From a virus (Duplodnaviria > Heunggongvirae > Uroviricota > Caudoviricetes), in the IMG/VR virus record IMGVR_UViG_2908567220_000004: a stretch of DNA of 35,453 bases. One strand, 5' to 3'. Positions 15,284-34,026 of this stretch are shown here, piece after piece (within the stretch, counting starts at the first letter, position 1; each line of letters begins with the position of its first letter). Made by a program: the position numbers and the translations under genes. Under the pieces are notes generated by a model that saw only the letters and a list, made by a program, of their open reading frames with translations, did not search any database and was not told the origin of the DNA.

Positions 15284-15305
15284 TTTAAATGGTGCGATAA
15301 TAGGA
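15284..15305. repeat. Degenerate copy of the thrW 3' end (att remnant; junction between the two integrated elements)
   Basis: TTTAAATGGTGCGATAATAGGA versus TTTGAATGGTGCCGATAATAGGA at 34004-34026 (one indel, one mismatch); lies 9 bp after the int stop. Confidence 0.6.
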
Positions 15306-15366
15306 ACAAAACAAACAATAAAAATACATTGATATATAAAGACATTTCCCCATTACATCTTTGGAG

Positions 15367-15387
15367 ATACCCCCAAAAGTACCCCCA
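15367..15387. repeat. Putative integrase arm-type site (copy 1)
   Basis: ATACCCCCAAAAGTACCCCCA; near-identical ATACCCCCATAAGTACCCCCA at 33877-33897, both just inside the element ends. Confidence 0.4.
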
Positions 15388-15529
15388 AACAATTTTCTCT
15401 CACCACCATTTGCACATAAAGCAGCCATGTACAACTGGTAGTTGAACAGGCGGGTAGACCGTTCGTTCAGTAAATACCTGATATTTCCGCCAACGAGAAA
15501 TTGCGTTGGCTGGCAGAGTGCAAATTTGC

Positions 15530-15730
15530 ACGATGACCTAACCCATTGATTCTTTCGAAAACCTGCAATGCAGGAAATGGGGGGAGGTAAGCCTAACCCA
15601 TTGATTATTTCGCCCCCCCCCATTGGGGGATGTCGGGAAAGTAAGCCTAAACCATGAGTAGACCTACGAAATTTTCGTAACCCCCTACGAAATTTTCGCA
15701 GTTTAATTACTCGCCAGATTAATCGCTAAC
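15530..15730. repeat. Repeat-rich att-proximal region (three CTAACCC..TGAT..TTTCG.AAACC copies and palindromic CTACGAAATTTTCG motifs)
   Basis: Direct repeats at 15538, 15583, 15725 and palindromic CTACGAAATTTTCGTA at 15661-15676 with a second copy at 15685-15700. Confidence 0.45.
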
Positions 15731-15835
15731 CCGCTGATATTTTCGGAAACCTCAATTTGAGGAATGTACCTAAAACCATTTTTATAGCTCCGCTCCCTTC
15801 AAAGTGAAGGGTAATTTGCCAAAACAGAGAGAGCA

Positions 15836-16123
15836 TTACTGTCTCTGGCAATCTTTATCGCGATAACGCCTGAAGTACCCTCTCGCTTCCTCATCCATAC
15901 CAAGAGCCGAATGAGTTCGCTTAACTGCCTGTCTTAAATCTCCGAATCTGTCTGTAGTTGCTGGTGGGCGTGCCGCCTTACGGATACATTCAGAGCGCCT
16001 GTTTGCTGCATGTTCACGTTCTTTATCGCCATTTGCCAGCATCATGACTTCTGCCCATCGTGCGGCAGCTCTCCGGTATAGCCCTTTTGACTCCAGCTCT
16101 TCAGCTTTCCTGTCCCTTATCAT
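15836..16123 (-). CDS. PerC/Pch-family transcriptional activator
   Basis: 95-aa ORF MIRDRKAEELESKGLYRRAAARWAEVMM.. resembling PerC/Pch regulators. Confidence 0.7.
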   Translation of the reverse strand: MIRDRKAEELESKGLYRRAAARWAEVMMLANGDKEREHAANRRSECIRKAARPPATTDRFGDLRQAVKRTHSALGMDEEARGYFRRYRDKDCQRQ

Positions 16124-16152
16124 TTCTGCCTCTCAGATTATATAGATAAGCA

Positions 16153-16267
16153 AAAAGGTGTTGGTTCAGTTGGTTCAGTTGGTTCAATTTGTAAAGAGCG
16201 TTGTTTTTATTGTGTTTTTTCTAAAATATTGAACCAACATCAACTCATTTTGAACCAACAAAAAGTG
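16153..16267. repeat. Iteron cluster (GTTGGTTCA x3 direct, then two inverted copies); crr/ori-like
   Basis: AAAAGGTGTTGGTTCAGTTGGTTCAGTTGGTTCAATTTG at 16153-16191 is the exact reverse complement of 24710-24748. Confidence 0.7.
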
Positions 16268-16610
16268 TCCGTGAACTAACACTCTGTCAAATAGTCACTA
16301 CATATATGAACGGTGAAGACTAAATCCGCCAGCAAATAGCTTATATAGCACCGCTTTATGCCGCAGTTATGCTGGAACAGTAATCATTTCACAGAACCGC
16401 CTAACTACTATATGGCACCTGCTAAAAAGCACATCAGCCTAGTCAGTTGATCGGTGCATGGATATCCTAACAATTCAACTATATAACGTGATCTCCCATG
16501 TCGATCTACTGTCATGCAATGATTAACAAACACATAGACACATCTGCTTGGCGCATTGATTAATCACTGATCATCCATCAGGATATGCGAACCACCGTCA
16601 CCAGGTTAGG

Positions 16611-31555: not shown

Positions 31556-31567
31556 TTTCAGTCTCCG

Positions 31568-31999
31568 TTAGGCGGCGTTAAACGCGTTCGGGTAGAGTTT
31601 CAGAATGTCGGCAATTTCCTGCTGAGAAAGTCCGTTGTGATCATTTATGTTCGCAAGATGGTTAACATGAGTGATCACTTTCAGAACATCACCACGGCAG
31701 GAGAAACGGTAGCGAAGGTGTGTTCCGATACCATCAGGATTCTTTTCGTCGATACGCTCCAGAGTGATTCCAAGCTGGCGTTCTAACTCTGTTGCATAGT
31801 TACGACCAGAAGACAGACGGCAGTAGCGAAGAATGTCATTTTCTGTCCATCCCTCTATACCAGTACGCAGCATATAGACTCGGGCACGATGCTTTTTCGG
31901 TGTGCGCTTTGGTGCTTGAAGGGATTTTGTAAGGGGCGTAATATCAGATACGCGAATATCTGAATTAGCCGCCTGTAATGGGCGGTTTTTCTTTTCCAT
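31568..31999 (-). CDS. Hypothetical protein
   Basis: 143-aa ORF, TAATG-coupled to alpA. Confidence 0.55.
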   Translation of the reverse strand: MEKKNRPLQAANSDIRVSDITPLTKSLQAPKRTPKKHRARVYMLRTGIEGWTENDILRYCRLSSGRNYATELERQLGITLERIDEKNPDGIGTHLRYRFSCRGDVLKVITHVNHLANINDHNGLSQQEIADILKLYPNAFNAA

Positions 32000-32202
32000 C
32001 AGGCCACCTCGTCTCTAGATTCTAATATACACTTCTCAATCCATTCATCTATTTCAGACTCAACAAAAGCAATTGCCCGACTTCCAATTTTTACCTGTTT
32101 AGGGAACCTCCCCTGACTAATAAGACGATAAATCCATGCTTTGCTATAACCAGTTCGCCTTTGAACTTCAGAGAGACGAATTAATGAATTGTAATTAGCC
32201 AT
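31999..32202 (-). CDS. alpA: AlpA-family transcriptional regulator/excisionase
   Basis: 67-aa ORF LIRLSEVQRRTGYSKAWIYRLISQGRFPKQVKIGSRAIAFVESEIDEWI typical of AlpA/Vis HTH. Confidence 0.85.
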   Translation of the reverse strand: MANYNSLIRLSEVQRRTGYSKAWIYRLISQGRFPKQVKIGSRAIAFVESEIDEWIEKCILESRDEVA

Positions 32203-32629
32203 TTATTAATATCCTGTACTAATGACGCAATAACCCCCTCCTGCAACGAATGGCGAGAGTTTTATTTGCGTCAAATGTCGAATACGCCAAAGACCACAAT
32301 ATGAAAAACATATTGCGGTCTTTTATAAAAGATAGTCAGATTGTTTTGGTTTGTTTGCTCCACAAGGGTAGAGCTACCCTGCATTTCGGCAGGATCACGC
32401 TATTAGGCGTGACATCCAGTAGTTTTAAAGAACAATTGCGCTTTGTCAGCGCCAAAGCCTGTTAAAGAACATTCCGCTTTTCAGCAGCGTAGAAGGCTCA
32501 ATACACCTTCGTTTATAAAAGAGCGATTGCCCTTCTCCAGGGCTAACTGTTAAATAGCAATCCTCTGTGAGTTTTTATCAATCTACTCCCCTATACTTTA
32601 GTAAACCTCTGTATACTTGTCCAGTTGTT

Positions 32630-33844
32630 TCATGCGTGTTTTTCAAACACCATATGCACCACATTTCCGCCATGCTCGAGAGAATCCATATAGTCGGCAT
32701 ACCATTGAAGCATCTCCCGCCGTCCATCCAGATATTGCGCATGGTTGTATGTGCCACGAATTGAGTTCTTATCAACGTGAGCGAGCTGCGTTTCTATCCA
32801 CGCGGTGTTATAGCCCTGCTCATGCAAAATCGTGCTCATAGTGTGTCGGAACCCATGACCAGTTACACGTCCAGCGTAGCCAATGCGCTTAAACACTTGG
32901 TTTATGCTGGCCTCACTCATTGTTTTCCTTGGATCATTGCGCCCGGGAAACATAAGAGGGTAATTGCCTGTTATTTCTCTAATCTTCCCAATAAGCGAAA
33001 GAGCCTGCTCAGACAATGGCACAATATGAGGCCGCCGCATTTTCATACGTGAAGCGGGTATCTCCCATATAGCCTTGTTGAAATCAATTTCATCCCATAA
33101 TGCGCCACGTAGTTCGCCAGTTCGCAAGCCGGTGATAATCAGTAGACGAGCCGCCATAACAACCAATGCGCTTCCTGAGTAACTGGACAATGCCTTGAAA
33201 AAATCAGGTAATTCTTTGGTCGTAAGGAAAGGGTAATGATTAGATTCATGGCCTTGCATCGCGCTAGTAAGGTCTGGTGCAGGGTTATACTCTGCGCGAC
33301 CAGTGACTATTGCATAGCGGAAAACTTCCCCGCACCGCTGCCTCACTTTTTTGGCTTTTTCTGTCGCACCGCGCCCCTCGATGCGCCGCAGCACATTCAG
33401 AAGTTCAAGTGGTTTGATTTCGGCGATTGGTTTTTTGCCAATGTAAGGGAACACATCTTTGTTGAAGGCTTCGAGGATGTCTGAAGCATAACCAGCAGAC
33501 CATTTTTTTAATTTGCTGCTGTGCCACTCAAGGGCAATATCTTTGAAGGTGTTGTTTAACTGCGTTTCCCGGGCAATCTTTTCCTCTCGTTTCGCTTCCA
33601 TCGGATCGATACCACCAGCGATACCTCTTTTCGCATCTTCACGTTTTGCCCGAGCATCGGCTAGAGTAACCTCAGGATACACACCTAGTGCCAATAGCTT
33701 CTCTTTACCAGCTACACGATATTTAAGTCGCCAGTATTTACCTCCATTAGGTTTTACCAAGAGATACAAACCGCCACCATCGGCCAGCTTGTAAGCCTTC
33801 TCTTTTGGCTTGGCTGTGTCTATTTGACGGGCATTGAGTTTCAC
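32630..33844 (-). CDS. int: Tyrosine integrase, P4 type
   Basis: 404-aa ORF MKLNARQIDTAKPKEKAYKLADGGGLYLLVKPNGGKYWRLKYR.. with C-terminal catalytic region (HGFRHTMSTILHE..YNH). Confidence 0.9.
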   Translation of the reverse strand: MKLNARQIDTAKPKEKAYKLADGGGLYLLVKPNGGKYWRLKYRVAGKEKLLALGVYPEVTLADARAKREDAKRGIAGGIDPMEAKREEKIARETQLNNTFKDIALEWHSSKLKKWSAGYASDILEAFNKDVFPYIGKKPIAEIKPLELLNVLRRIEGRGATEKAKKVRQRCGEVFRYAIVTGRAEYNPAPDLTSAMQGHESNHYPFLTTKELPDFFKALSSYSGSALVVMAARLLIITGLRTGELRGALWDEIDFNKAIWEIPASRMKMRRPHIVPLSEQALSLIGKIREITGNYPLMFPGRNDPRKTMSEASINQVFKRIGYAGRVTGHGFRHTMSTILHEQGYNTAWIETQLAHVDKNSIRGTYNHAQYLDGRREMLQWYADYMDSLEHGGNVVHMVFEKHA

Positions 33845-33876
33845 TTGGGGGTACCTCCACTAAACCGAACAGCAAA

Positions 33877-33993
33877 TACCCCCATAAGTACCCCCATCTG
33901 ACCGTAGATTTTGAGGGACTTTAGTAGACGTCAAAAGACGAACGGGGCTTTAATACGCGGATTATAAGGGGTTTTGAAAGACTTTAGTAGACT
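33877..33993. repeat. Putative integrase arm-type sites between int and thrW
   Basis: ATACCCCCATAAGTACCCCCA (copy of 15367-15387) and two direct GACTTTAGTAGAC repeats at 33915-33928 and 33980-33993. Confidence 0.4.
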
Positions 33994-34003
33994 TGGGGAG
34001 ATG

Positions 34004-34026
34004 TTTGAATGGTGCCGATAATAGGA
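34004..34026. repeat. att core overlapping the thrW 3' end
   Basis: Direct repeat of 15284-15305. Confidence 0.6.

Follow-up and report, generated by a model that had tools for sequence, protein, structure and literature searches.

What has integrated at the 3' end of the tRNA-Thr gene thrW, and how many times, is the question raised by IMG/VR virus record IMGVR_UViG_2908567220_000004, a stretch of 35,453 nt that is here called, at its full length, the window. The original prediction, made from the letters of this DNA, was that two different elements had integrated in tandem. According to our analysis it is very probable that thrW holds such an array, in which a satellite of the EcCIMP1 family, a phage-inducible chromosomal island (PICI), lies next to the tRNA and a lambdoid prophage with an SfIV/P22-type integrase lies distal to it, the two having the middle attachment (att) repeat in common, and in which the satellite carries a selected, exchangeable cassette of P22-type genes.

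The satellite element next to thrW

The only tRNA of the window is, as predicted, a tRNA-Thr(CGU), found by ARAGORN as tRNA-Thr(CGT) at 34010-34085 on the minus strand and likewise by Rfam (tRNA, 71.8 bits). This is thrW, the integration target, and the chromosomal flank with proA (34200-35453, minus strand, from the annotation of matching loci) lies beyond it. The proximal att repeat, AATGGTGCCGATAATAGGA at 34008-34026, includes the tRNA 3' end (34010-34026) and contains, as its reverse complement, the core TCCTATTATC published for EcCIMP1 (PMC11773190). The reverse complement of TCCTATTATC is the 10-mer GATAATAGGA, which is present in the window at 15296 and 34017 only. The middle repeat (AATGGTGC-GATAATAGGA, 15288-15305) is one C short and is a hybrid, with the prophage arm on its left and the distal arm of the satellite on its right. 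Read on the plus strand, 15284-15305 is tttAaatggtgc-gataatagga and 34004-34026 is tttGaatggtgccgataatagga, and these copies agree at 21 of 23 positions, one C being missing and one A/G difference being present. The window has exactly two occurrences of the pattern AATGGTGC(N0-1)GATAATAGGA, at 15288-15305 and 34008-34026, against none in 100 dinucleotide-preserving shuffles; the att repeats are far beyond chance. The repeat predicted at 15284-15305, with one C missing, is thus real, but it had been described as a copy of the tRNA 3' end throughout, and only 34010-34026 is tRNA, 34004-34009 being downstream of the CCA end. An internal att copy splitting the right-hand element was searched for, and none was found within the element.

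By the published convention the right-hand element extends from 15296 to 34016 (18,721 bp, 18.7 kb). EcCIMP1 is a 19,963-bp PICI of Escherichia coli MP1 (Pick, Stadel & Raivio, ISME J 2025; PMC11773190; OR778291), inserted at the tRNA-Thr gene that lies between proA and yagU, with TCCTATTATC repeats on either side (PMC11773190). Its circularisation depends on the presence of the P22-like phage Kapi1, its ends were confirmed by Sanger sequencing, and its transduction requires int and alpA (PMC11773190); helper-dependent induction of alpA, excision via int and alpA and transfer by the P22-like phage come from experiments on EcCIMP1 (PMC11773190). Compared with MP1, positions 22713-35453 of the window are collinear and 98.6% identical at the nucleotide level over 12.7 kb, a stretch that covers the genes from the integrase as far as the beginning of gp20; at the protein level, identity is 93-100% for the products from the integrase through gp7. 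The gene order is common to both (int, alpA, antirepressor, Ash/CI locus, primase, 'DNA transfer' genes and PerC), as are the integration into the thrW 3' end beside proA, the TCCTATTATC core repeat, a distal att with a single C, and the tandem position with another thrW element. Collinearity and high identity thus hold against OR778291/CP139039, the distal third being a different allele. The window differs from EcCIMP1 in that the remainder of gp20, the whole of gp16 and the cargo have been replaced, alpA_1 and the pRiA4b-family gene of MP1 are lacking, the element is 18.7 instead of 19.96 kb long, and the neighbour is a prophage, whereas in MP1 it is the vat island. Judged by these alignments, the right-hand element is an allelic variant of the published satellite EcCIMP1 and not a new type; of the two possibilities originally put forward, PICI-like or a new satellite type, the first one stood.

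The P22-type ejection cassette

The original prediction found no capsid genes in the right-hand element. This was correct for capsid and terminase genes, but four virion-assembly and ejection genes, gp14, gp7, gp20 and gp16, had been overlooked. All are on the minus strand. The gp14 homologue (DUF2824) is at 23544-24005 (Pfam E 1.5e-61; PHROG 651) and is 84% identical to gp14 of Kapi1. The gp7-type ejection protein at 22873-23550 (Pfam P22_gp7, E 2e-72) is 56% identical to that of P22 and 57% to that of Kapi1, and the gp20-type ejection protein at 21452-22873 (473 amino acids, aa; Pfam Inj_translocase, E 4.5e-58; PHROG 917 over its full length) is 34% identical to that of Kapi1. The last gene, at 19347-21452, codes for a gp16-type ejection (DNA transfer) protein of 701 aa, which matches PHROG 770 over profile positions 3-667 of 668 and is 30% identical to P22 gp16, with no blastp match to gp16 of MP1 or Kapi1; the gp16 of MP1 is a different allele of 906 aa with an SLT domain. 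A terminator-like hairpin (19344-19323) follows gp16. Apart from gp14 and the three internal ejection proteins, the scanned open reading frames (ORFs) included no genes for coat, portal, terminase, tail or lysis.

The same four genes in the same order are found in P22-like phages (14-7-20-16 in P22, Kapi1_055-058 in Kapi1). In contrast to these phages, the cassette has none of the surrounding tail-needle, coat, portal, terminase and tailspike genes, its proteins are divergent from those of Kapi1, and it is headed by a small satellite-specific ORF of 53 aa (24022-24183, minus strand). The small ORF has no match in 50,697 phage records and no PHROG match, and its sequence pattern suggests that its product may be a ribbon-helix-helix protein. 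It is 87% identical in E. coli SW07164 and 85% identical in Leclercia, in the latter case with a ratio of nonsynonymous to synonymous substitution rates (dN/dS) of 0.03. Comparison of the E. coli copies with those of Leclercia gives a dN/dS of 0.03-0.08 for all five genes, the small ORF and gp14-gp7-gp20-gp16, at a dS above 1. The cassette is intact and under strong purifying selection.

The primase was used to scan one genome per species for relatives, which gave about 70 Enterobacterales loci with a backbone of int, alpA, the gene for a 143-aa protein, antA, primase and, in part, perC. In Leclercia adecarboxylata MGG-10dp (L033) the complete series of small ORF, gp14, gp7, gp20 and gp16 stands behind a primase that is 68% identical, in an element that has a different integrase and adjoins mipA, with no tRNA in the locus. 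Homology of this locus with the window starts 286 bp upstream of gp14, and with MP1 it extends over 5.5 kb and ends at the gp16 stop. Behind the small ORF there are at least three allele sets of gp20 and gp16, namely that of the window (473 and 701 aa), that of MP1 and Leclercia (439 and 906 aa, with SLT) and that of SW07164, where the small ORF is directly followed by a Kapi1-like gp20 (75% identical) and gp16 (41%), with no gp14 or gp7. Near-identity of the window to EcCIMP1 breaks inside gp20, at 22713, and the variable part between the near-identical satellites is gp20 after about residue 53, including its C-terminal region, together with all of gp16.

P22-type phages integrate at thrW, and the integrase of the neighbouring prophage is 89.7% identical to P22 Int. 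The order gp14-gp7-gp20-gp16 and the orientation away from thrW match a P22 prophage, and most relatives of the primase module in other genera have perC directly after the primase and no cassette. The right-hand element could on these grounds be a composite, in which a P4-like island from the integrase to the primase stands beside the decayed remnant of a P22-like thrW prophage and the ejection genes are junk. We consider this improbable. The stretch from the primase to gp14 contains no att copy, and the sequenced excision junction of EcCIMP1 encloses the cassette (PMC11773190). The four genes are full length and have the low dN/dS given above, and the same cassette with the same non-phage ORF is found behind a related primase beside mipA in Leclercia. 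Homology to phage genomes halts exactly at the start codon of gp14. Finally, the insert is bracketed by the satellite's own iterons, of which the window holds 11 exact copies (TGAACCAAC; 0.32 expected) in two clusters. Cluster A, six copies in two opposed triplets at 24631-24741, just past the primase stop, is a candidate replication origin, and cluster B has five copies at 16160-16259, just upstream of perC, so that the ejection cassette and the cargo lie between them; the motif is also found after the primase in Leclercia L033. In other genera the relatives have perC directly after the primase, and the cassette therefore seems to have been inserted into the origin region or next to it. Taken together, the lack of an internal att, the published excision junction, the Leclercia copy and the low dN/dS indicate that the cassette is not a remnant of a dead prophage. 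The identity of 15306-34009 as a P22-like prophage was likewise rejected: only genes 14, 7, 20 and 16 are there, with no terminase, portal, scaffold, coat, tail, tailspike or lambdoid early region.

As for the function of the cassette, P22 mutants that escape the injection block by SieA map to the C-terminal regions of gp16 and gp20 (PMC10461980), and EcCIMP1 has been reported to add superinfection immunity against Kapi1. The sites of escape from SieA fall in the variable part of the satellites, and it is therefore plausible that the cassette helps to overcome exclusion encoded by the helper or contributes to it. We tentatively propose that gp7, gp20 and gp16 of the satellite may deliver DNA from the transferring particles and that this might either let the satellite into cells in which a resident helper prophage expresses SieA-type exclusion or underlie the superinfection immunity, a possibility to which we give a rather low probability. 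In our literature search no description was found of a phage satellite having its own DNA-delivery proteins instead of capsid-remodelling or packaging ones.

Comparison with P4 and with PICIs

From the tRNA outward, the minus-strand order of the backbone is integrase, AlpA, a 143-aa protein, AntA/AntB, DUF4222, an 'Ash' ORF, six small ORFs and the replication protein. The integrase beside the tRNA (32630-33844, minus strand, 404 aa) is of P4 type, as predicted, by its Pfam domains (Arm-DNA-bind_3, Phage_int_M, Phage_integrase) and by 42.5% identity to P4 Int over 407 aa; it is 100% identical to the EcCIMP1 integrase of MP1 by tblastn. The window contains five copies of the motif RTACCCCCA (0.28 expected), all of them within 165 bp of an element end and with tandem pairs 12 bp apart. 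Three copies lie in the integrase-proximal arm at 33846-33896 (33846-54, inverted; 33876-84; 33888-96) and two in the distal arm at 15367-15387, in tandem 12 bp apart as also in the distal arm of MP1. These are candidate arm-type integrase sites, and their confinement to the two ends fits a single attP spanning both. In the integrase-proximal arm, a 13-nt repeat GACTTTAGTAGAC is also present at 33917 and 33980.

AlpA, likewise predicted, was recovered at 31999-32202 (minus strand; Pfam Phage_AlpA, E 7e-20) as a regulator/excisionase of the AlpA family; its function was shown in PMC11773190. The 143-aa protein (31568-31999, minus strand) has no Pfam or PHROG match and is specific to the satellite family, being kept beside alpA in many Enterobacterales relatives. 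It is followed by an AntA/AntB-type antirepressor (30722-31555, minus strand; Pfam AntA, E 3e-21; PHROG 5817) and the DUF4222 gene (30550-30729, minus strand). The DUF4222 gene has an annotated counterpart in the related prophage copies of strains CE0011b and CH4790.

Within the 'Ash family protein' ORF (29486-30553) there are two RNAs on the minus strand at 29945-30172, an IsrK-like RNA (30095-30172) and a C4/CI-type antisense RNA (29945-30032), and both Rfam matches exceed the gathering scores (RF01695, 81.1 bits; RF01394, 69 bits). The P4 'cI' ORF matches 29721-30040 in the same ORF, which makes a P4-type RNA immunity locus the best reading of the region; the 'Ash' protein annotation may largely reflect this conserved RNA locus. 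The replication protein (24767-27526, minus strand; PHROG 1139) has by Pfam a Zn-ribbon, a Toprim primase domain and DUF927, and is 99% identical to the MP1 protein. Its earlier naming as an alpha primase applies to the N-terminal primase part, which resembles P4 alpha (34% identity over aa 5-339 only), but the remainder is DUF927. The EcCIMP1-like variant of SW07164 (L085, 20597-38967) deviates in the C-terminus of its primase (DUF5906) and has int and alpA separated by an IS3.

With P4 the element thus has in common the integrase family, an AlpA/Vis-type regulator, the CI/C4 RNA locus, the Toprim N-terminus of the primase and arm-type repeats around attP. These resemblances, together with an Icd-like ORF, speak for a true P4-like satellite that exploits a P2-type helper. 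This is nevertheless highly improbable: sid, delta and psu, whose absence had been predicted, as well as epsilon, gop, beta and cII, gave no tblastn match in the whole window (E up to 0.01), and the P4 cos region had no significant match there, only chance matches of 10-13 nt. Moreover, the virion genes are all P22-like in type, and the characterised relative uses a helper that is P22-like and not P2 (PMC11773190). A further difference from P4 is that DUF927 makes up the replication protein's C-terminal half. Membership among P4-like satellites was rejected on sid, delta, psu and cos. Judged by gene content, integration and immunity of the element work partly as in P4, but it is not a member of the P4-like satellites.

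For PICIs of Gram-negative bacteria we followed the criteria of Fillol-Salom 2018 and the SatelliteFinder scheme as cited in PMC11773190. The element has int followed by alpA in the same orientation and a primase, all on the minus strand, and its 18.7 kb are within the expected size of about 10-20 kb. A module for packaging or capsid redirection (Rpp, TerS, capsid-size genes) was found neither by Pfam nor by PHROGs. The scheme of de Sousa would score EcCIMP1 as 'Type C #var01' (PMC11773190).

Beyond the cassette lies a variable cargo region on the plus strand (16611-19328), which codes for a protein of 361 aa (PHROG 7651) and a membrane protein of 145 aa (PHROG 8552) and also contains, at 18741-19328, a membrane ORF. 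Neither Pfam nor PADLOC matched the cargo genes or the small conserved ORFs, PHROGs gave only families of unknown function, and no meaningful DNA similarity to phage records was seen; their identity as defence systems was rejected for want of a PADLOC or Pfam match. The cargo differs between EcCIMP1-like copies, with an Abi protein in SW07164 and others, and the region could be an unrecognised exclusion or defence module. The membrane ORF at 18741-19328 converges on gp16, which is the position of sieA in P22. Its identity as SieA was rejected, since the analogy is positional only (BLASTP E above 1, no match to PHROG 7745). The last gene of the satellite codes for a PerC-family regulator (15836-16123, minus strand; Pfam PerC, E 3e-33), which is 54% identical to the PerC-like protein of MP1, and that protein repressed LEE1 in published work. 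A PerC-family protein is also found in the prophage (7231-7725), and regulatory cross-talk of the two neighbours is conceivable.

The tandem with the left-hand prophage

Left of the satellite, 3482-15305 holds the early region and integration module of a lambdoid prophage, with Q at 3612-4406 (minus strand), a cI-type repressor at 9916-10608, an Xis-like gene at 13801-14235 and the integrase at 14112-15275 (these three on the plus strand), together with DUF968, RusA-region genes, replication genes and homologues of yfdP-T. The integrase has 387 aa and ends 8 nt before 15284. The prediction of a second, P22-type integrase beside the left repeat was accurate, its identity being 99.5% to the integrase of Shigella phage SfIV in addition to the above 89.7% to that of P22. 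The prophage resembles the thrW phages P22 and SfIV in this integrase and in that its end abuts thrW in other strains, but it differs from them in that the satellite separates it from the tRNA and IS5 and IS1 interrupt its late side. The window does not extend to the far end of the prophage. The related thrW prophage in CH4790 has late genes of myovirus type. On the late side of the window prophage there is also a csp cold-shock gene with a full cspA thermoregulator 5' untranslated region at 1206-1645 (156 bits).

The comparison with strains carrying one of the elements, which the original prediction had proposed as a check, was made with 5,426 complete E. coli genomes. The left part has many matches that stop exactly at 15305, and in CE0011b and CH4790 the left prophage is present alone, its integrase and early region being followed directly by thrW-proA. 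For the right part, similarity sets in at the repeat (position 15290 in blastn, 15296 when placed by the core repeat). ABU 83972 has the right element and not the left prophage (99.6% identity over 15290-35453), as has MP1; in both of these the right element has as neighbours a remnant integrase and the vat island, so that thrW carries an array of islands there as well. The flanks of the middle repeat are chimeric, the left one identical to the prophage arm of CE0011b and the right one to the distal arm of ABU 83972. As the strains with one element break at the repeat, the elements are independent, and tandem occupation of thrW by two independent elements is supported. Either order of the two integrations predicts the observed structure.

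That 15305-34009 is merely the continuation of one large prophage from the left half of the window, as the contiguity of the parts and the occurrence of PerC-family and DUF4222 genes in both might suggest, is scarcely credible, given the strains with either element alone, the two different integrases, each beside an att copy, and the middle junction that only one of the 5,426 genomes, SW07164, spans; the comparative data thereby refute a single prophage, one of the outcomes that the original prediction had set against itself. The array of SW07164 consists of thrW, a satellite variant, the same middle att with a single C, a degraded prophage with a P22-type integrase and a third att copy at the far end of its prophage remnant. 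In MP1 (L003) a C-terminal fragment of a P22-type integrase is found at 1333-1550, followed by a degenerate att tttaaaatggataatataa, at the far end of the vat island near yagU; the thrW array of MP1 thus has traces of three elements.

The middle repeat had been called degenerate. The missing C is probably not random decay, as the same single-C form is found at the distal junctions of relatives: at 15288-15305 in the window, 8701-8718 in MP1 (L003), 20597 in SW07164 (L085), 21515 in Leclercia L056 and 16276 in Kluyvera L067. The window and SW07164 have one outer flank in common, so that these five loci represent four different outer flanks. CC is kept in relatives from Enterobacter (L008) and Lonsdalea (L014), and the prophage arm that abuts the tRNA directly has the CC form. 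The recurrence across genera with different outer flanks suggests that the single-C form belongs to the satellite attP. The simplest reading of these sequences suggests that strand exchange takes place in AATGGTGC and not in the published core TCCTATTATC; exchange there would keep the tRNA intact and leave the single-C variant at the distal junction.

Several points weigh against the reading of the locus as an EcCIMP1-family satellite with a selected cassette beside a thrW prophage. Nothing within the window indicates that this copy is active, no helper is visible there, and the reported transduction frequency of EcCIMP1 is very low. Among the approximately 70 loci, nearly all relatives from other genera lack the cassette, which is thus an accessory module and not part of the family core. 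For the Leclercia element L033 no ends could be set: a search for direct repeats yielded no convincing candidate, and the locus does not extend as far as the distant chromosomal flank. IS5 (1761-2741) and IS1 (1-504, itself cut by the window edge) interrupt the left prophage on its late side, and with these and the csp gene the prophage may be defective. The role proposed for the ejection proteins is speculative.

It seems likely from homology and anatomy that the satellite would work as follows. The P4-type integrase would recombine attP, consisting of AATGGTGC(C)GATAATAGGA and the RTACCCCCA arm sites, with the 3' end of thrW, the same tRNA end that the integrase family of the left prophage (SfIV/P22-type) targets. 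The P4-like CI/C4 RNA locus would keep the satellite quiet, and replication would start from the TGAACCAAC iterons via the Toprim-DUF927 primase. A P22-like helper would turn on alpA and lead to excision, circularisation and transfer in helper particles, as the experiments demonstrated for EcCIMP1 and as we infer for the window copy, and the predicted junction of the circle has the form ...GATGTTTGAATGGTGC(C)GATAATAGGAACAAAACAAAC... The cassette would most likely load the satellite's ejection proteins into particles built by the helper, or otherwise alter DNA delivery or exclusion among P22-like phages.

The tandem arrangement mainly confirms textbook biology, i.e., serial site-specific integration into one tRNA gene, and the element family is already known, having been described and experimentally tested in 2025 (PMC11773190). 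What is added here is that the genes called hypothetical or 'DNA transfer' in the EcCIMP1 paper constitute a complete P22 14-7-20-16 cassette, which is found in satellites with different integrases. A crossover in AATGGTGC, if true, would refine the published EcCIMP1 core. The cassette, the CI RNA locus under the 'Ash' ORF and the distal att variant are all testable in the MP1/Kapi1 system.

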